Virus record (IMG/VR): IMGVR_UViG_3300033120_000845 | Location: 68,414 to 132,413 of that record | Length of the DNA: 64,000 bases | Strand: one strand, 5' to 3' | Origin: a virus | Taxonomy: Duplodnaviria; Caudoviricetes | In this document: in pieces, positions 1,496 through 64,000 of the stretch | Numbering within the stretch: position 1 is the stretch's first letter | Layout: every line of letters starts with the position of its first letter | Notes under the pieces: generated by a model | Database searches by the model: none | The model's input: the letters and a program-made list of their open reading frames with translations, nothing else | Told to the model about the DNA's origin: nothing | Program-made: the position numbers and the translations under genes

Positions 1496-4400
1496 TGGAT
1501 AAGAACGATTTCATTTCAAGAAAAATAAGTATTTTAAAAGATGAACACCCTGATTGGTCACACGATAAACTTATCGCGGTGGCTTTTTCGTACTATAATA
1601 AAATGCAACAAGGGGGTATAGTAGATAAAACGCAACTTTTAAATCTAAACTTATCTCAAGACCCATCTTTACCACCAACTACAGCAGTCCCTATGTCATT
1701 TGAAGAACAGCAAAGAACAATTGCACCTCAAATGCCAATTGACCGTATTTTATATAATGTCCAAACACAAGAACCGAAGCAAGGATTACCTGAAGGTACA
1801 TACACTCGCGTAGATTACAAGGGGGGCAGACAAAGCGACTACTTAACCCCTGAAGGGCTGGAAAACTTCAAAAGAATGAATAATTACAGATTATTCATGG
1901 AGCAACAAGCACAGAAGAAAATGCAACAAGGGGGGACATTAAAAATAGAACCTACTTTACCTCCTTATGGACATGAGATAATCAACCCTATAAAATCTGT
2001 ACAAAAAGGAGTTAATCAAGGCAATGAAGGGTATTATGTATATTATGGTGACCCAAATGACCCACAATCAGATAAAGTGTTTTTTACAAATTCTGAGTAT
2101 GAATTAAAAAAATCTCTACAGAAACCGACTTCAATGTATCCGGGTCAATATGAACCACTATTACAAGCATATCTTAAAAAGAATAATGTGAAAATGGAAG
2201 AGGGTGGGTTTATGAATTTACCTGTAATGCAACAAGGAAGTCAATTTTTTGACATCAATTCTCAAACACTTTCTCCCCAACAAGATTTTTCTGTACAAAA
2301 TCAGGACAGACTAAGAAGTTATCATACACCTGCACAACCACAACAAGCAGTGGCGCAACAGTATCCAATAGCACCAAATCAATTCCCTGCTCCGACATTC
2401 CAAAAAGCGGATGTAAATGACATAGAATTACCACAAGGACAAGCACCCTCTCAGCAAGAATACGCATCAACATTAAAAGACGGAATGATGACTGACTATG
2501 GAGAGAATTTAAGATATAACACAGAGCAAGGAACGGTGGGTGAAAGAACACCAACAGGAAAAACTCTAACAAAAGAAGAGTACTTTAATAAAATTAAATT
2601 ATTAAACCCTTATGGTGATGTTGATATTCCTGTGGCTGCTAATATGTTAGGACAATCAATTGGATATGAAGGTGACCAAAAAGGATGGAATGCTGTTCGT
2701 GGTATTGCTTCAGCAGGTAAAATAGTGGCAGGACTTGGTAGAGGAATTCTATCGGGAGTGGCTTCACAAAAATCTTGGAATCAATCTTACCAAGACTATT
2801 TAGCAAATCAAAAAGACCAAGGTAATGTTTATACAGCCTTACAAGAAGGGGGTAAGATTACAGTTGCTGATAGTTTAACAGGTGCGTATACAACTGAAGA
2901 TTTGAATGGAGCAAATGTGGAAGTTGAAAATGGGGAAATTATAAAAGACGGACAAACTCAAGAAGTAACAAAAGCTGTTGGTGAAACACATGAAAATGGA
3001 GGCATCAAAACTAATCTCCCTGACCAATCAAAAGTTATTTCTGACCACACTCAAATCGGCGCAAAAAACGCTAAAAAATATAGAGACGAGTTTGGAGTAA
3101 CGGTTAAAGCCTCTGATACATTTGCTAAGGTGATGGATAAAGTCCAAACTAAAATTGGACTTAAGAAAATTATAAAAGACGAAGCGGACATTATTAAAGA
3201 GATTGACAAAGCAACAACTAAAGGCACAGCAAATGATACTTTAGATGTTAATATGAAATTTCTACAAAGTAAGATGTTAGAGCTACAAGCTAAGAAACAA
3301 CCTTTAGAAGATTTACAAAAAGTTGCTTTTGAATCTGTTTTTGCCGACCAAGAGAGAATTCCGAAAAAGGGAACTAAAGAAGGTGAAGCTCAATTAGGAG
3401 GAATGATGTATAATGACCAAATAATTGGATTATCAAAACAATACAATGTCGCTCCTGAAAGAGTGCAAGAGCTTTTGAAAATGGAAGATGGCGGAGGTAT
3501 TGATTTAAATAATGTCAGAGTATCAAACAGATACGAAGATAAAAATAAATATACATATCAAAACCCTTCAGATACAGATTGGCAAACATTTGGGGATTTA
3601 CTAAAATCCAATCCTAAAGAAGTTTTAGCGGAAATTAAAAGAACACAACCTGAACTTTACGATAAATTCTTAAAGGACGGAAAATATAAAGACCAAAAAA
3701 ACATAGAGGCTTATCAGAAAGGTATTAATGATAATTACACTAAAGTTTTAAAATCAGCAGAAGTAAGATTTGGTAAAGATTCAGAAGCATATAATAAAAT
3801 TAAACAAGATATTGAGGCTTCAAACTTTCTGCCTGTAAAAACAGAATTCAGAAAAGATAAAGGTAAAGAGTTAAATACAGAAGTGAGGGGATTTGATTCT
3901 AAATTCGGTAACTTTACTTCAACTCGTCCAAATTATGAAATCCCAACTCTTCCAAAAGAGGATTATGAAAAAGTAAAAAAGGCAGGGGTAAATTCAAGTT
4001 ATGAGTTGCAAAACAAGTTTCCTGAATTATACGATAAGTATGTTAAAAAAGCAGGATTAGAGGGAGATTTCTATATAGGGCAATTTAATCCTGAAGAAGC
4101 TAAAACAAATACTACCCCAACAGAAAAATCACCTGAAACACTTTATAAAGAAAGAACTTTGACAACAATGCCAATGTTTCCAAGTGATATGATTCTGACT
4201 CCAAGTAATATAATGCCAATTAAAAAGCATGAAATAGCTTTGGAAAGAATGACTCCTGTTAAACAATCTATTGAGCCTAACATCGTAGAAGCGCAAAGAC
4301 AAACACAAGCAGCCGTAAATAATTTCAGTTATCTTCCTGATAATCAAAGAGCAGCGATGTTATCTGAATATATGACAAATCAAGGAAGTGCTGTTAATGA

Positions 4401-33056: not shown

Positions 33057-33884
33057 TTAAATTTTAATGTTTTGTAAAGGGGATTGTATTTTACTAATTG
33101 TAGAATGAGAAATATGTAAATATATAGATGTGGTTTTAACAGAACTGTGACCAAGTAAGCGTTGTATCATGTTGATATCAATTCCTGCATCACACATGTG
33201 GCTTGCTGAACAATGTCTAACCAAATGTGTATAGACTCTTTTGTCTAATCCTGCCTTTGTAGCTAATTGTTTAACAACTTGTAACACACTTCTTGAAGAA
33301 TATTGTTCTGAAAATTGCCCGCCAAAAATAAAAGACTTAGTTTTAAATTCGCGGTAATATTCCTCCATTAATTTTAGTAATGTGTCGTTCAATCCCACTT
33401 GCCTGTTTTTTCCACCCTTAGCATTTAGTATATAAATAATCATTCTACTTCTATCAATATTTTCCCACCTTAAATTAATGAGTTCTGAAACACGCAAAGA
33501 ACAAGAGTATAAAAGTGCTAAAATTAACTTATGCTTCCTATTCTCACACATATCAAACATTTTTTGAATTTCCTCTACAGAGAGAATGATTGGCAAGCTT
33601 TTATCTTTCTTTGTATAAGGTATATTTTTAAACTTTTGTTTTTGATTTAAACAAATATCATAAAATAACTTTATAGCAGAATGATAGTTTCTTTGAGTAT
33701 TAGCTTTTATGCAATTGCTTAAAAAATGTTTAATGTCTTGTTCATTGATATTCTTAGGGTGGTCTTTATTAATAGTGGATAAAAACACATCAATGCAACT
33801 ACTGTAATTTTTAATACTGTTTTCTCTATATCCTCTTCGTTTCATTTCCTGAATGAAAGTTTGTTTGTGTTCAGAAGTTTTCAT
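33057..33884 (-). CDS. Tyrosine recombinase/integrase (candidate cassette integrase)
   Basis: N-terminal SAM-like domain (RRGYRENSIKNY); intact catalytic set LRVSE, AKGGKNR, HLVRH, LGH, TTSIY; no IntI-specific insertion visible before the HxxR box. Confidence 0.9.
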   Translation of the reverse strand: MKTSEHKQTFIQEMKRRGYRENSIKNYSSCIDVFLSTINKDHPKNINEQDIKHFLSNCIKANTQRNYHSAIKLFYDICLNQKQKFKNIPYTKKDKSLPIILSVEEIQKMFDMCENRKHKLILALLYSCSLRVSELINLRWENIDRSRMIIYILNAKGGKNRQVGLNDTLLKLMEEYYREFKTKSFIFGGQFSEQYSSRSVLQVVKQLATKAGLDKRVYTHLVRHCSASHMCDAGIDINMIQRLLGHSSVKTTSIYLHISHSTISKIQSPLQNIKI

Positions 33885-33886
33885 TG

Positions 33887-33944
33887 TTAAGTATTGATTT
33901 TATTAGTGTTTTAGAGTGTGTAATACATATTTATGTTAGGCGAT
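33887..33944 (+). other. attI-like primary site of cassette array 1
   Basis: 27-bp motif TTAAGTATTGATTTTATTAGTGTTTTA (33887-33913; 26/27 identical at 62895-62921), then GTT core at 33935 with no preceding hairpin; immediately upstream of the integrase start. Confidence 0.65.
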
Positions 33945-34289
33945 ATTTGGACACAACTCGTTTAACAAATCGAAAGACTTATTAAAATTCTCAAATATTG
34001 GTTCTATATCGTTCCCTGTACTTTCTCCATTTAAGAAAAACTCGCAACTAATACTTTTTTCTTGGCACAAATATTTTATAGCCGAAACAAAGTCTGGACT
34101 ATTTGAATAAAAGTCCATTGATTTATTTAACGACAATGCTTTTTGTGCTTGTATCACCTCATTTAGTGGGTGCAACTGATGCCTACACTTATCTTCAATG
34201 GAAACTCCACAGTAAACACGAATAAAAACATCGCCTAACACAGGTTTTGTGCTATTGCTTTGCTCGGTGTTTAAATTTTGCTCAGTCAT
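33936..34289 (-). CDS. Cassette 1 hypothetical protein
   Basis: Starts inside the attC-like loop; TAA stop is the complement of the GTTA core. Confidence 0.7.
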   Translation of the reverse strand: MTEQNLNTEQSNSTKPVLGDVFIRVYCGVSIEDKCRHQLHPLNEVIQAQKALSLNKSMDFYSNSPDFVSAIKYLCQEKSISCEFFLNGESTGNDIEPIFENFNKSFDLLNELCPNIA

Positions 34290-34371
34290 AATATGTAATG
34301 TTTAGTGTTTAAATTAAAATTTGTTTTATTTTTGGTCGCAACAGACACAAAGCCTGAAAACGTTAGTGGCA
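34230..34371 (+). repeat. attC-like site 1
   Basis: ATCGCCTAAC-a-CAGGTTTTGTGCTATTGC...GCAACAGACACAAAGCCTG-aaaac-GTTAGTGGCA. Confidence 0.85.
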
Positions 34372-34374
34372 ATT

Positions 34375-35079
34375 TTAAGAAGCGTTCGTGTCAATAACAA
34401 TCGGTTCTATAAATGTACCAAGTTCATATTTTTTATTCTCTCCTTTTGGATAAGGTTTAATTTGATAATTAAGTTTTTTCATATACTCTTTTCTTTTAGT
34501 TTTACTTGTTGCAAAATAAATGTATCGGTGTTTAGCACTTCTGTATTTTCTTAAACCTTTTTGTTTTTCATTATCGTAGTGCCTTGAATGTTTTCCACCT
34601 TCAACATATTTGTCAGTTCTCGCTTTTGTCATTCCTGTATAAATCCAATTTGTAGCTTGATAAATATATCCGTTATGGTTCATTTGAGTATCAGCATAAG
34701 AAACTAAAATTAAATCTTTTGCTTTCAATTCATTTAGACACCAAGCCACAAATTTAGATAGTTGTATTTCAATTTCGCCATCAACACAAAGTCGGTTTAA
34801 TTCAAATACCTTTTCGCTATATTCTTTTCCACAAACTCCAATACATAAACTATTACTTGCAGGTTTACCAAATGTGCATACTGCTTTTAAGACATCTTTT
34901 TCATAATAACCAAAAGAAAAAGTAATACTCGGTTTTCTACCTGAATAGTGGCGAGGTAATAAAAAATCAACCGCTTGTTTATACGTTATTGAAGAAAAAC
35001 TGCCACTAACACTGCATATACGCAATGTGGGGTTTAGTGCTTCAACAATGTTTTGGTTTTCAAATAAACTTTTTTGCAT
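34375..35079 (-). CDS. Cassette 2: Mom-like (GNAT-fold) DNA adenine-modification protein
   Basis: FLLPRHYSGR, VCTFGKPAS, FELNRL, VSYADTQMNHNGYIYQATNWIYTG, KHRYIY. Confidence 0.75.
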   Translation of the reverse strand: MQKSLFENQNIVEALNPTLRICSVSGSFSSITYKQAVDFLLPRHYSGRKPSITFSFGYYEKDVLKAVCTFGKPASNSLCIGVCGKEYSEKVFELNRLCVDGEIEIQLSKFVAWCLNELKAKDLILVSYADTQMNHNGYIYQATNWIYTGMTKARTDKYVEGGKHSRHYDNEKQKGLRKYRSAKHRYIYFATSKTKRKEYMKKLNYQIKPYPKGENKKYELGTFIEPIVIDTNAS

Positions 35080-35137
35080 AATTTAAATTTTAGTTTTTAT
35101 AAGTCCCACACTGCGTATATGCTTTTACGTTAGCGGA
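35001..35137 (+). repeat. attC-like site 2
   Basis: TGCCACTAAC-act-GCATATACGCAATGTGGG...CCCACACTGCGTATATGC-ttttac-GTTAGCGGA. Confidence 0.85.
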
Positions 35138-35141
35138 GATA

Positions 35142-35780
35142 TTATTCACGTTTTGTTAAATAAGACTTTAAATGCTCACGATATTCAGGAGTTCTATTTT
35201 TCACAAGAAAATCAATAGTTTTATTCATTTCAATTTTACGATACTCATCTATTCCAATTTCTCTCATTTTTAAAATCACATCGCCTGTTACTCCAAAACA
35301 ACAATCTTCATAATCCGATTGGTTTTTATAATTGTACATTTTAGTTTTGTCTATTTCAATTTCTGAATTGACCAAGCCTTCTAAAGTTGGAAGTTTTTTA
35401 TATCTTTCTATTCTTTCTTTTTTTCTTTGTAAACCTTCAAATATTAAATCCAAGCAATGTTCTTTAGTGTATCCGTAAACGTGTTGTGAAGCCGTTGAAA
35501 AAGAACTATAAATAGAATCACTATAATTAGTTTCTTGCGGATGCCTTTCTTCTACTTTTATTTCCTCATCTAATATTAAATCAAGATATTGCTCTTTAGT
35601 GTGTTTATGGACATACTCATTTAAGTATATTTCTTTTAATTCATTTTGAACTTTTTTAGCAACATCATAATCTAAAAATTCTTTTCTTAAATTTACAAGA
35701 TAATCCTTTCTACAAATACCATCCGCTAACACAGGTTTTGTGCTATTGCTTTGTTCGGTGTTTTCTGAATGTTTGGTCAT
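35142..35780 (-). CDS. Cassette 3 hypothetical protein
   Basis: Starts in the att loop; N-terminus NTEQSNSTKPVL shared with cassette 1. Confidence 0.7.
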   Translation of the reverse strand: MTKHSENTEQSNSTKPVLADGICRKDYLVNLRKEFLDYDVAKKVQNELKEIYLNEYVHKHTKEQYLDLILDEEIKVEERHPQETNYSDSIYSSFSTASQHVYGYTKEHCLDLIFEGLQRKKERIERYKKLPTLEGLVNSEIEIDKTKMYNYKNQSDYEDCCFGVTGDVILKMREIGIDEYRKIEMNKTIDFLVKNRTPEYREHLKSYLTKRE

Positions 35781-35859
35781 AATCTGTATTTTTAGTGTTT
35801 AAATTAATGTTTTGGTCTATTTTTACGCAACAGACACAAAGCCTGATAACGTTAGCAAA
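35722..35859 (+). repeat. attC-like site 3 (near-copy of site 1)
   Basis: TCCGCTAAC-a-CAGGTTTTGTGCTATTGC...GCAACAGACACAAAGCCTG-ataac-GTTAGCAAA. Confidence 0.85.
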
Positions 35860-36304
35860 CAGTTAATTCACGGCCTGTTAAAGCGAAATAAAAGTTTTGA
35901 AGTTGATGAACATATTTTACAACATCAAAAAAAGTAGAGCCTTGAAATCTTAATCCAAAAGTTTTTAAATTATGTTTTGGCAAAAAATAATCAAATCTTG
36001 TGTCTTTTTTCAACTCGTATCTTAATGTAAACTCGTTATCAATTATTTTTTCAAATCCGAATTTCATTAACCATTCCTCATTTATTTCAATCGGTTGATA
36101 ATCTTCGTTCATTTCGTGTTTTATTCCAAAAATCCGTAAATCATCATAGTCAATTTCTGAAACTTCAAGCCATTCTTTGCGTTCATCCATTTTATCAACA
36201 ATTCTATAATTTATCAAATTACCTATTCTAAACTCCTTATCCGTAACCGATTTGCTAACATCGGTTTTGACTAATGCCTTACTTGGTTTTGTGCTTTTAC
36301 TCAT
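35852..36304 (-). CDS. Cassette 4: Bacteroidota-phage-type hypothetical protein
   Basis: EFRIGNL...QPIEINEEWLMKFGF...VHQLQNFYFALTGREL; stop within the GTTA core. Confidence 0.7.
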   Translation of the reverse strand: MSKSTKPSKALVKTDVSKSVTDKEFRIGNLINYRIVDKMDERKEWLEVSEIDYDDLRIFGIKHEMNEDYQPIEINEEWLMKFGFEKIIDNEFTLRYELKKDTRFDYFLPKHNLKTFGLRFQGSTFFDVVKYVHQLQNFYFALTGRELTVC

Positions 36305-36389
36305 TGGTTTTTAATTTAAAAATTAGTTTGTGCTTTTGTGTCTAGTCTTTAATTTACGGCACTAGACAAAGCCGAGAACCGTTATGCAC
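36251..36389 (+). repeat. attC-like site 4
   Basis: TTTGCTAAC-a-TCGGTTTTGACTAATGCC...GGCACTAGACAAAGCCGA-gaacc-GTTATGCAC. Confidence 0.85.
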
Positions 36390-36408
36390 AAGCACTACGT
36401 TATCGTTT

Positions 36409-37155
36409 TCAAATGAAATTTACGTTATAGACTAAATCCTTTTCTTCCTTGTTTATAATGTATTTTCCTGCTTCAAAATCACTTCTTACCCATTTAGCAA
36501 GAAAATCTACTTCGCCTTTTCTTTCAACTCTATAAACCATTCCTTCGGGTTTTTCATCAGGTGTAATTCCGTATGTTTTTTTGTTTAGTTCTGGTAATAT
36601 ATTTTCAACAGTTTCTGATTTTCCTCTGTGTAATAGTCTTGGAAGTTGTATTTCATATTTATTATAAAAACTATCCAAAACATCAAAACTGCTTCTTTGG
36701 TTATTTGCTGTAAAATGGTCAAAGAAAACTATCGGTTGTAATCGGGTATCAATATTATATTTAATTCCGTGTGCTTGCGCTAACCATTCTCCTGTAATTC
36801 TTTCTCCATTTTTTAACAAATCCATCCAAGTCATTATATTTTTATAAACCCAATCACTAAATAAATGATGTTGCTTGTAAGGGCTTGTATTTGCAATATA
36901 TCCACTTCTAGTAAGTGCAACTATTCTATTGTCAATTTTTCCAATTCCTACATTAGAACCGTCATATTTTTCAAAGACAAAAATTTCATCGTTTTTATCT
37001 CTAACTTTTACAGTTAAAATTCTTTCTTGTCCTTTATCTATAAAATGGTCGCCAGTTCCTAAATTACTATTTGATAAATGAGGAATTGAACCGTAATTTT
37101 TAATACCTAATGGTTTCATAAGTTCATTTATTTTTAAAATACCGTGCCAGTGCAT
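36409..37155 (-). CDS. Cassette 5: ATP-dependent RNA ligase-family protein (start may be 37119)
   Basis: Motif I EKYDGSN; GEW; FFD; PEGMVYR; AKWVR. Confidence 0.8.
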   Translation of the reverse strand: MHWHGILKINELMKPLGIKNYGSIPHLSNSNLGTGDHFIDKGQERILTVKVRDKNDEIFVFEKYDGSNVGIGKIDNRIVALTRSGYIANTSPYKQHHLFSDWVYKNIMTWMDLLKNGERITGEWLAQAHGIKYNIDTRLQPIVFFDHFTANNQRSSFDVLDSFYNKYEIQLPRLLHRGKSETVENILPELNKKTYGITPDEKPEGMVYRVERKGEVDFLAKWVRSDFEAGKYIINKEEKDLVYNVNFI

Positions 37156-37287
37156 AACAGCAATTTTGCGCTATTACCGTTTTAGGCTTTGGGTTATGTT
37201 AATTTTGTATTTGTTAATATTATTTCTTAATCAATGATTTCGGCTTTCTTATCGGTAACAGTCGCAAAGTTGCAAAACGTTATGCGC
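37150..37287 (+). repeat. attC-like site 5
   Basis: GTGCATAAC-a-GCAATTTTGCGCTATTACCG...CGGTAACAGTCGCAAAGTTGC-aaaac-GTTATGCGC. Confidence 0.85.
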
Positions 37288-38301
37288 AACCTTTCGTAAT
37301 CGTTTCCATAATACGATTTTGCGCTATATCGAAATAGTTTTTATCCATTTCTATTCCAATAAATTTACGGTTAGTGTTTACGCAAGCTACTCCAGTACTA
37401 CCTGAACCCATAGTAAAATCTAAAACAGTTTCACTTTCATTTGTATATGTTTTTATTAAGTACTCCATTAAATCTAATGGTTTTTGTGTTGGATGTACCC
37501 TTAGTTTAACCCTAAAATTAAAATTAAGTATATTGGTATTTCCAAAAGTACTGTTGTAAACTTCCTCTATTTCTTTATATTCAAATAAACCTAATGGTTC
37601 TTTTAATTTATTCCACATTTCCATAGTAGGAACTTGTCCGCATTTATTATTCCCAGTATAAATACTCCACATTCCACCTCCATTTTTAGCAACTCCAAGT
37701 AGACTATGAAAATCATCTTTACCTAAACCGTATTTTAAACAAGCTTCTTTTTTATTACTTTTGCTATTTTTGGTCTTGCATTTTTAGTATTCACATTTAT
37801 CAGCTCACATATATTTGGGTGCATTTTATATTTACCAATATTCCTGCCACCTAAAACTTGTTTTCCTTTATTTATAAACAGTAATTCTCTGTGTATTAAG
37901 TTGTTTTTTAATAAATTTGGATATATAAACTCTTGGGTTTTATGTGAACCAAATATAATTAATCTGCCACCACTTCGTAATGTTCTTGAACATTCTGTTA
38001 TTACACTATTAAAAAAAATATTAGCTTCATTAAATGTTTTATTGTCCCACGATTCATTAACCATACCAATGTAAGGTGGGTCAACAATAACAGCATCAAT
38101 ACTTCCATCAGGTATTTTCTTCATCAATTCAAGACAATTTCCGTTCCACAATTCAGGCAGCGCATAACAGCGGTTTGGAGCAATTGCCGTTTCATTTTCA
38201 AATAAACTTTCTTGCATAATATCAAATTTTGTTTTCATAATTAATTTTTCGGTACGGCAACTGCACCAAGCCGTAGGCGTTATAATAAACTTAACACACA
38301 A
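37280..38301 (-). CDS. Cassette 6: beta-class N6A/N4C DNA methyltransferase split by a -1 frameshift at 37747-37753 (true start probably near 38217-38238)
   Basis: Upstream ORF has GNCLELMK..IDAVIVDPPY; downstream ORF has HPTQKP..VLDFTMGSGSTG..FIGIE; the -1 frame is open across the junction. Confidence 0.8.
38160..38285 (+). repeat. attC-like site 6
   Basis: GCGCATAAC-ag-CGGTTTGGAGCAATTGCCGT...ACGGCAACTGCACCAAGCCG-taggc-GTTATAA. Confidence 0.85.
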
Positions 38302-63422: not shown

Positions 63423-63522
63423 ATCGTTTAACAAAGGTTTGGCGCAATAAAGCCAACACCTTCTGATTAATATTCTTGTTTTTCTAAGGCTTTACTTCGC
63501 CAAGCCTCTGGACGTTATAAGC
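63423..63522 (+). repeat. attC-like site 7
   Basis: ATCGTTTAAC-aa-AGGTTTGGCGCAATAAAGCC...GGCTTTACTTCGCCAAGCCT-ctggac-GTTATAAGC. Confidence 0.85.
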
Positions 63523-64000
63523 AAGCTGCTACGTTCCTGCTCCGAATGAAAGTTCCCCATTGTTCAGCCATAGCTTTTGCCACCCCACTAAAAGTTTTTG
63601 AGCTTTCCTTTTGGCTTATATTTACAAATTGGTATTTCTGTCCTCGTTTCTTCCCTCCTGTATTGCTCGGCAAATACGGCTTATAGTTGCTCTTAATATC
63701 AGTCGGCTTTAATAGTGGCAAATTTTTCAACCACAATAATGTTCGCTTACTAAATTCGTGTCCATATTCGTAGGGCTGTATCGCTTGGTCTTGTTTTGGC
63801 AATTCAACTACTTTTAATGGTGTTGGATTTTCAATAGCAATATATTCAATCGGTGCATTTAGTAGTTGTAAAAACAAGTCCTTAGCTTCCATTGCTTTTG
63901 CGTATCTGTCTTGGCACAAATTTCCTGCCGTTGGATACATCCATCTTGCTCCAGCCCTACTCATATAAGTACAAGGTGGGTGTGCAATCATCATATCATA
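63515..64000 (-). CDS. Cassette gene: C5-cytosine DNA methyltransferase-like protein (5'-partial)
   Basis: DMMIAHPPCTY, IAIENP, IQPYEYGH..SKRTLLWL, SKTFSGVAKAMAEQWG; stop within the GTTA core. Confidence 0.75.
   Translation of the reverse strand, partial: YDMMIAHPPCTYMSRAGARWMYPTAGNLCQDRYAKAMEAKDLFLQLLNAPIEYIAIENPTPLKVVELPKQDQAIQPYEYGHEFSKRTLLWLKNLPLLKPTDIKSNYKPYLPSNTGGKKRGQKYQFVNISQKESSKTFSGVAKAMAEQWGTFIRSRNVAACL

Follow-up and report, generated by a model that had tools for sequence, protein, structure and literature searches.

A Row of Hairpin-Linked Cassettes beside a Tyrosine Recombinase Gene

We analyzed a stretch of 64,000 nucleotides (the window) that forms the last 64 kb of a 132,413-bp record of a Caudoviricetes virus, IMGVR_UViG_3300033120_000845. 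The window holds a row of imperfect palindromes, each bounded by a TAAC box and a GTTA box, that lie among accessory genes and begin next to the gene for a tyrosine recombinase. An earlier reading of the letters alone (the original prediction) had proposed that seven such hairpins keep their structure and the positions of their mismatches rather than their sequence, and that the recombinase may use them as single-stranded hairpins, with recognition determinants different from those of integron attC sites. The record is classed as linear and ~92% complete, and the G+C content of the window is ~30%. Large open reading frames (ORFs) occupy the plus strand of the first 26 kb; the remainder carries replication and accessory genes on the minus strand, including those for PolA, DnaB, ThyA, and RNR.

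We searched for TAAC...GTTA pairs with complementary inner arms, requiring a score of at least 24. With this threshold, the window contains seven sites. The next candidate scored 20, each of 20 shuffled sequences gave zero or one site, and the reversed sequence gave none; a chance origin of the seven sites is excluded. Six of them (S1–S6) form one row at 34231-38287. The coordinates given with the original prediction, 34230-38285, hold for these six; S7 lies apart, at 63424-63522. On the plus strand, each site starts with TAAC and a short spacer; two arms of ~20 nt follow, separated by a loop of 13–79 nt, and a long spacer and GTTA close the site. The recombinase gene, the junction next to it, and the sites are listed below, with arm positions counted from AAC and letters given as left arm/right arm.

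33057..33884, minus strand: tyrosine recombinase of 275 amino acids, Xer/XerA-like (Pfam PF00589, PF13495), candidate cassette recombinase.
33915..33944, minus strand: attI-like junction, a conserved sequence beside a TAAC box, ~50 nt upstream of the recombinase start, at the left end of the array.
34231..34370, plus strand: S1, hairpin of cassette 1; T34245/G34352, A34254/C34342, extra A34345.
35002..35137, plus strand: S2, hairpin of cassette 2; position 6 paired (A35016/T35120), A35025/C35111.
35722..35859, plus strand: S3, hairpin of cassette 3; T35736/G35841, A35745/C35831, extra A35834.
36251..36389, plus strand: S4, hairpin of cassette 4; T36265/G36371, A36274/C36362, mismatch A36270/A36366, no bulge.
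37150..37287, plus strand: S5, hairpin of cassette 5; T37164/G37269, A37173/C37259, extra T37262.
38160..38287, plus strand: S6, hairpin of cassette 6 and last site of the array; T38174/G38270, A38183/C38261, mismatch A38179/A38265.
63424..63522, plus strand: S7, short-loop site preceding a methyltransferase cassette at the contig end; T63438/G63504, A63447/C63495.

The imperfections named in the original prediction are all present. At position 6, T stands opposite G (a T-versus-C difference between the arms) in S1 and S3–S7, while S2 has a normal A-T pair. At position 15, A stands opposite C (A versus G) in all seven sites. S1, S3, and S5 carry an extra base in the right arm; near the same place, S4 and S6 have their A/A mismatch and S7 has a C/T mismatch. 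The spacer after AAC is 3–4 nt shorter than the spacer before GTT in the seven sites.

The sites delimit cassettes. The 9-nt boxes that flank each gene are exact reverse complements; neighboring sites are thereby chained, each right box being complementary to the left box that follows it, a pattern classically associated with integron cassettes. A cassette starts with the last three letters (TTA) of a GTTA box and about five variable letters, continues with a minus-strand gene followed by the reverse complement of the variable letters and TAAC, and ends with a hairpin that holds the leader of the gene, often with its start codon, and then the G of the next GTTA.

33936-34362: cassette 1, with hairpin S1.
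34363-35129: cassette 2, Mom-like gene (34375-35079, minus strand), with hairpin S2.
35130-35851: cassette 3, ORF 35142-35780 (minus strand), with hairpin S3.
35852-36381: cassette 4, ORF 35852-36304 (minus strand, phrog_10066), with hairpin S4.
36382-37279: cassette 5, RNA ligase gene (36409-37155, minus strand), with hairpin S5.
37280-38279: cassette 6, N6/N4 DNA methyltransferase ORFs 37280-37672 and 37735-38301 (minus strand), with hairpin S6.

The cargo (a Mom-like protein, two unknown proteins, an RNA ligase, and a split N6/N4 DNA methyltransferase) is encoded entirely on the minus strand, with start codons in the loop or at the box of the right-hand site. It is therefore antisense to what we take below to be the top strand of the sites, unlike integron cassettes, which lack promoters of their own, are read from a common one, and are co-directional with the attC top strand.

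Three smaller observations concern these genes. A single Pfam domain is divided between the ORFs of cassette 6, the first matching its C-terminal and the second its N-terminal part (gap 37672-37735), which means either a frameshift or a gene that is broken. The Mom-like and methyltransferase ORFs start in hairpin loops with nearly the same peptide, MQKSLFEN and MQESLFEN (35011-35079 and 38168-38217, respectively); both read through the short-spacer arm, and their frame relative to the box varies between sites. We also inspected arms and loops by eye for Bacteroidetes -33/-7 promoter boxes, saw no consistent spacing, and dropped them.

Fixed Irregularities and Covarying Arms across the Site Family

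Sites of the same family, with chained boxes, occur in Flavobacterium phage 2A, in Muminvirus phages, and in viral and metagenome contigs whose recombinases are 61–89% identical to the 275-residue protein. Polaribacter phage P12002L carries a short form of the site, and its attC1 has lopsided spacers. When 151 evenly drawn genomes of the class Bacteroidia were searched with the site model, 103 gave a match at E ≤ 1e-4, many of them with 15–22 scored sites in tight arrays. One of the 151 genomes (G093) is unpublished, and nothing claimed here depends on it. Four chromosomal arrays (G014, G142, G044, and G125) have chained boxes and, at one end, a recombinase of ~275 amino acids that is 32–36% identical to the phage enzyme. 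Chromosomal arrays comprise 20 or more sites of a uniform 136-nt length, and one contains more than 10 near-identical hairpins. Their genes are co-directional with the model strand of the site, opposite to the phage; the phage arrangement is a flipped-cargo version of the chromosomal arrays. No tyrosine recombinase was found in Muminvirus or P12002L, despite their arrays.

To describe the family, we counted letters over 43 distinct phage sites and 60 sites (61 in some counts) from bacterial chromosomes. AAC and GTT are invariant in the phage sites and in 61 chromosomal sites, and a T before AAC and an A after GTT are present in 41 of the 43 phage sites. The phage spacers measure 0–3 nt on one side versus 4–7 nt on the other, with an offset of 4 nt in 30 sites and 3 nt in nine, and the four chromosomal arrays that we inspected have the same geometry. 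Position 15 places A against G in 40/43 phage sites and is never reversed. The pair is non-standard in every one of 60 chromosomal sites, giving 100/103 over both sets. At position 6, 32 of the 43 phage sites have T against C and the others a normal pair; C against T never occurs. The 61 chromosomal sites have C-G (27), U-G (22), G-C (9), or A-U (3) at this position. Position 15 is the invariant of the family, and position 6 is a frequent but optional feature. An extra base lies at positions 10–14 of the long-spacer arm in 14/43 phage sites, mostly between 12 and 13.

These irregularities stand at a fixed distance from AAC while the arm sequences differ, and the paired arm positions take all four letters. 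The proposal that structure rather than sequence is kept thus holds for the structure and the mismatch positions. It does not extend to arms free of sequence conservation, as phage sites share an A at position 1 (43/43), TT at 7-8, K/G at 9-10, and T at 16.

The original prediction had asked for covariation in the arms, and it is strong, at non-conserved positions 60–90 nt apart. In the 43 phage sites, 84.2% of structure cells are paired, compared to 62.7% in shuffles, and the covariation score is 0.481 versus 0.130 shuffled (reached in 0/500) and 0.06–0.08 with slid partners. Chromosomal sites give 88.2% paired versus 57.8% and a covariation score of 0.685 versus 0.161. RNAalifold detects compensatory changes in 13/13 pairs. 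Many sites are kin by descent, so that these pairing and covariation figures overstate independence, yet the slid-partner control, which retains the relatedness, is equally clear. Covariation at non-conserved arm positions points to selection on a folded strand.

In searches of Rfam, S6 weakly matched Wolbachia sRNA (small RNA) 46 (27.6 bits versus a gathering cut-off of 65.3) and none of ~40 other sites gave a match; we take the S6 match as chance.

Natural Exchanges Place the Junction in the Long-Spacer Box

Muminvirus genomes that are 99.4–100% identical differ by whole gene-plus-hairpin units. A unit has been lost from mumin6-3, another has been exchanged in tooticki6-1, and filifjonk9-1 has gained one unit and a block of several units. 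In all four gain, loss, and swap events, every junction falls inside AACG|TTA of the long-spacer box. A unit begins with TTA and the variable letters and continues through the gene and the complementary box to the G that ends the hairpin. New units arise at the constant end of the array, which behaves like an attI site, and the central regions differ between the recombining partners. In the window, the Mom unit (34357-35132, gene plus S2, between GTTA boxes) recurs in contigs from other metagenomes with both flanks unlike. As a side observation, the 3′ end of cassette 4 (35839-35914) resembles the gp008 cassette of mumin6-1 (mumin6-1 4177-4252), which is the unit found in mumin6-1 and absent from mumin6-3.

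Because of how tyrosine recombinases cut relative to their binding arm, we assign the plus strand as top and the minus strand as bottom by integron convention and expect cleavage at TAA|C of the long-spacer box.

Other exchanges have different ends. The RNA ligase gene is 93.6% identical to that of Flavobacterium psychrophilum phages, and the identity spans only from the right box of S4 to ~11 nt into the left arm of S5, while the hairpins are unrelated. Cassette 3 likewise ends inside the short-spacer arm in another metagenome. For a gene to acquire another hairpin, some exchange must have taken place in or close to the short-spacer box. The other strand could have been used, strands could have been exchanged a second time at the border of the inner stem, or homologous exchange could have occurred in the conserved TTKG; such replacement leaves some probability to a duplex or two-strand mechanism.

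Whole hairpins are also shared. The body of S1 is ~90% alike to S3 and to sites in mumin6-1 and in contig L014, and in these four contexts the identity runs exactly from TAAC to GTTA. We had taken this single hairpin in four contexts as proof of a left-box crossover but withdrew the argument, since uniform hairpins across cassettes are also typical of chromosomal integrons. The depth of contigs summed over four metagenomes shows several-fold peaks over the S3 (35814-36014) and S4 (36216-36416) hairpins, which implies that these hairpin bodies are present in many other contexts (sludge, river, and wastewater). Short contig joints (36398 to 37141, 34330 to 38408, and others) with sides of <30 nt were left unused, and parts of the stretch that were uncovered in other runs carry no meaning.

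The Folded Strands Differ in Shape and Stability

We folded both strands of each site in its circular-cassette form with DNA parameters. The minus strand forms a box stem of 9–10 bp, a one-sided 4-nt bulge, four pairs, the position-6 C-A mismatch, and six pairs, followed by a single bulged base or mismatch and then a stem that contains the position-15 G-T wobble. The 4-nt bulge is mostly G then pyrimidines and lies immediately 3′ of the expected cut. The fold of the plus strand instead has an internal loop (1-by-5), with position 6 forming a T-G wobble and position 15 an A-C mismatch. Each strand thus has a G-T wobble at one of these positions and an A-C mismatch at the other. Both pieces of extra material, the 4-nt bulge and the single bulged base, are on the arm adjoining the crossover box.

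Folding both strands of circularised sites, a check that the original prediction had suggested, reveals that the strand corresponding to the window minus strand is systematically the more stable in both phage and chromosomal sites. The minus-strand hairpin is favored by 1.4–1.6 kcal/mol among phage sites (41–44 of 54) and by 2.4–3.5 kcal/mol among chromosomal sites (49–57 of 60). For integrons, the bottom strands are more stable by 2.12 kcal/mol (PMC5027507). The asymmetry follows the orientation of the site and not the direction of the genes, which run with the model strand in chromosomes and against it in phages.

A Xer-like Recombinase and an attI-like Junction

The gene at 33057..33884 encodes the sole copy of the recombinase in the 132-kb genome, and one short ORF separates it from S1. 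Among NCBIfam models, XerA_Arch scores best, at 206.8 bits (cut-off 220). XerD gives 166.9 bits (cut-off 329.6), and the integron-integrase model TIGR02249 matches in two stretches, with 165 bits (cut-off 265). In an alignment with VchIntIA (2a3v), residues 13–175 match 12–179 and residues 196–272 match 242–319; ~42 residues of IntI 180–241, the IntI-specific insertion, are absent. In the 2a3v paper, this insertion is said to hold residues that contact extrahelical bases. A model of the phage protein (predicted local distance difference test score 76) has a short loop at residues 181–196. The nearest folds are archaeal XerA (4a8e, 5hxy) and then 2a3v, to which the Foldseek alignment needs ~50 gap columns. 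The 275-residue recombinase thus lacks the insertion (I2 helix, intI_Cterm) that marks an IntI-type integrase and that has been described as essential for integron function (PMC8138268).

At the attI-like junction, TAAC is followed by ATA-n-ATATGTA. This motif occupies the same place in 10 loci whose recombinases are 61–100% identical, the array begins there, and the motif occurs once in the virus genome. G33935 is probably the crossover G. As a separate observation, the ~75-nt P12002L_attC2 occurs twice in its phage (about 29150-29245 and 37175-37270). Both copies form the constant flank, ending in G|TTA, where a methylase/Mom array starts, so that the sequence resembles the attI-like end of that phage more than an attC.

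Among phage isolates, the best relative of the recombinase is 35% identical (Polaribacter phage Leef_1), and none was found in phages that share the sites. A scan of bacterial genomes with the single protein gave no match. With an alignment as the query, the scan gave six contigs, all belonging to metagenome-assembled genomes; these may have come from phages and been binned with bacteria.

Other Site Groups in the Virus Genome

Searching the whole genome with a covariance model of the sites gave 16 full sites, located in four places. Three of these groups lie outside the window, at genome 743-2750, 15526-15659, and 17776-19734, and one is inverted together with its genes. None of the three contains the recombinase or the attI-like motif. 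Window positions 63515-64000 and the genome start (1-707) hold DNA methyltransferase cassettes (phrog_757) that are ~95% identical, each preceded by a different hairpin, and the hairpin at genome 1987-2073 is nearly identical to S7. The record probably broke at a duplicated or polymorphic methyltransferase cassette, and S7 probably belongs to the array at the genome start (1-2750).

A Proposed Cassette System Acting on a Folded Strand, and Its Rivals

We consider it reasonably probable that the hairpins serve as attC equivalents in an integron-like cassette system, widespread in Bacteroidia chromosomes and their phages, in which a short Xer-like recombinase takes the place of IntI and acts on the folded minus strand. 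In such a system, the minus (bottom) strand would fold so that the boxes form a stem of 9–10 bp, with the 4-nt bulge 3′ of TAA|C and a stem of ~20 bp beyond it. One recombinase subunit would occupy the box stem and a second the inner stem. One strand would be exchanged at TAA|C, the partner being the attI-like site or a second hairpin, and replication would then resolve the junction, as in integrons. The fixed irregularities would make the two strands and the two hairpin ends distinguishable, selecting strand and orientation; candidate signals are the 4-nt bulge, the C-A/T-G pair at position 6, the bulge or mismatch near 12/13, and the invariant G-T/A-C pair at position 15. These features could stand in for the extrahelical bases and unpaired central spacer of attC, read by an enzyme without the IntI insertion. 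Folding in vivo, the identity of the cut strand, and the role of each irregularity are what we infer from these comparisons. Of the earlier suggestions, selection on structure and recognition determinants different from those of attC are well backed; the recombinase lacks the IntI segment, the sites lack the attC-type extrahelical layout, and position 15 is invariant.

A wider proposal, which we hold to be as open to doubt as to belief, is that the family represents a second, IntI-independent lineage of folded-single-strand recombination. A Xer-like enzyme would read the 4-nt bulge and the invariant G-T/A-C pair, running large arrays in most Bacteroidia chromosomes and, with the cargo flipped and self-expressed (methylases, Mom, and RNA ligase), in their phages.

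Several observations weigh against a cassette system of this kind. The nearest relatives of the recombinase are Xer enzymes, whose usual substrate is duplex DNA, and the short-spacer half of the site is dif-like, with a TAA box, a 6-bp center, and a conserved TTKG arm. Recognition could be partly sequence specific, given the conserved arm positions, and kinship among the sites inflates the covariation figures. Some shared modules (RNA ligase and cassette 3) end ~10 nt inside the short-spacer arm, not at the box, and the RNA ligase gene has unrelated hairpins in two phages; neither the arm-internal ends nor the replacement of a hairpin is predicted by a strict one-crossover cassette model. Finally, of six sites in a published assay, IntI1 failed to recombine only attC1 of P12002L, the one with the lopsided, family-like shape (Qi et al., 2023; PMC9892861). 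This failure speaks for a family distinct from canonical attC, but it is one negative result from one paper.

Some of these points would fit recombination of duplex DNA at dif-like sites, with each half-site a double-stranded core, the inverted layout as in pdif modules, and the T/C and A/G differences reflecting two half-site consensuses. In addition to the dif-like half, this explanation accommodates a recombinase that scores best with Xer models and lacks the IntI insertion, junctions near both boxes, and sequence conservation at positions 1, 7-10, and 16. We nevertheless regard it as unlikely. It does not explain covariation between non-conserved arm positions 60–90 nt apart, and it gives no role to the systematic difference in strand stability. 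The clean natural junctions fall at the half with a center of 10–11 nt, unlike duplex cores, and the differing central regions of the partners would block classical two-strand exchange. A duplex dif site has two ~11-bp arms, a center of 6–8 bp, and crossover at its border, and here a 6-bp center is present only in the short-spacer half. The cassette junctions could also be real and the irregularities mere by-products of founder inheritance, of the process that makes cassettes, or of avoidance of palindrome cleavage. Near-identical hairpin families (S1 and S3, and the more than 10 copies in one bacterial array) and the optional nature of position 6 are what such an origin would leave, and yet it seems to us distinctly improbable: position 15 is non-standard in 100/103 distinct sites while its neighbors use four letters, it is never reversed, and its distance from AAC is fixed though the arms differ. 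Protection from palindrome cleavage would fix neither position nor direction.

There is very little probability that the hairpins act in mRNA, in processing, termination, or translation control, even though the more stable strand in the phage is the sense strand and leaders and start codons are found in the loops. Relative to the site, the genes of bacterial arrays occupy the opposite strand, and yet the asymmetry is unchanged; the features thus belong to the DNA site. An RNA element also leaves the complementarity of boxes across genes and the precise cassette insertions and deletions unexplained, and no Rfam family fits. We give almost no credence to the reading of the hairpins as MITEs (miniature transposable elements with inverted repeats). 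Elements of ~136 bp with inverted ends, in many copies and common to Flavobacterium-type bacteria and phages, would suit it, and a MITE census that ties Flavobacterium to its phages via shared inverted-repeat elements (PMC11602168) may include these hairpins. However, there are no direct target duplications, the flanking letters being inverted instead; the pairing of the variable letters next to the boxes spans the gene and not the element; natural insertions and deletions take gene and hairpin together; and the arrays are linked to an attI-like site and a gene for a tyrosine recombinase.

If the hairpins are indeed cassette sites acted on as folded strands, the consequences reach beyond this virus. 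Integron biology rests on one enzyme family, IntI, and on one mode of reading folded DNA, through extrahelical bases. The same cassette logic run by a simpler Xer-like enzyme would be a natural second example for asking which properties allow a tyrosine recombinase to work on single-stranded hairpins. Surveys published with IntegronFinder list hardly any integrons in Bacteroidetes; our data suggest that a large share of Bacteroidia genomes and many phages may hold arrays that these surveys do not report. Were the second lineage confirmed, hosts and viruses would share one cassette-exchange machinery that current integron finders miss. Since the phage cargo consists of counter-defense genes, and since Nilsson et al. 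(2020; PMC7077304), who noted no sites, linked the methylase content of Muminvirus phages to how efficiently they plate and to host range, the sites would be hinges of the arms race between phage and host.

Comparison with Known Systems

In the literature that we searched, no paper described the recombinase, the attI-like site, or the hairpin determinants; the reports concern clusters of attC sites lacking integron integrases (CALINs) in phages, such as P12002L. One parallel is the attP site of CTX phage, which, in work attributed to Val et al. in 2005, reportedly folds as a single strand and is recombined by XerCD. In that system, a Xer-type enzyme likewise acts on a forked one-strand hairpin and replication resolves the junction, but the whole phage integrates at dif, there are no cassettes or arrays, and the host XerC and XerD serve in place of a dedicated enzyme. 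The pdif modules of Acinetobacter plasmids are Xer dependent, with 28-bp duplex sites that lack long covarying arms. As in our arrays, inverted Xer-type sites flank genes that are swapped as modules; here, however, crossovers fall at the half-site with non-dif spacing. The promoter-stem-loop (PeSL) cassettes are said to mark hyperplastic regions of T4-type phages, in work attributed to Arbiol et al. in 2010. They similarly bracket small accessory phage genes with stem-loops that carry expression signals and mark places of gene shuffling, but they have no AAC or GTT boxes, chained complementarity, linked tyrosine recombinase, or attI-like site.

Published arrays include those of Qi et al. (2023), who described CALINs with methylase cassettes in virulent phages, including P12002L, and no phage integrase (PMC9892861). 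These, too, are phage-borne attC-type clusters around DNA methyltransferase genes. They differ from the present account in that they were treated as ordinary attC sites usable by IntI1, with no dedicated recombinase, attI-like site, or special geometry.

Integrons themselves share many features with the phage system. Their attC sites are also imperfect palindromes bounded by AAC and GTT boxes, with free arm sequence, a kept structure, and a more stable bottom strand. In both systems, the start of a cassette pairs with its own inverse box, and the crossover is at G|TT; the conserved attI-like sequence, a candidate insertion site, lies beside the tyrosine recombinase gene as attI does in integrons. 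Near-identical hairpins within one array are likewise a feature of sedentary chromosomal integrons, as in the Vibrio VCRs (Vibrio cholerae repeats). The differences concern recognition. A canonical attC leaves 5–6 nt unpaired in each arm, and its extrahelical bases, two or three in number, stand close to L″, on the R″-L″ arm, away from the cleaved AAC (PMC5027507). The sites described here show neither the extrahelical bases on that arm nor an unpaired spacer of 5–6 nt in each arm; instead, they have a one-sided 4-nt bulge, extra bases on the arm adjoining the crossover box that carries the cleaved AAC, and an invariant G-T/A-C position. The recombinase of the phage system lacks the IntI insertion, and its cargo runs antisense and starts inside the site.

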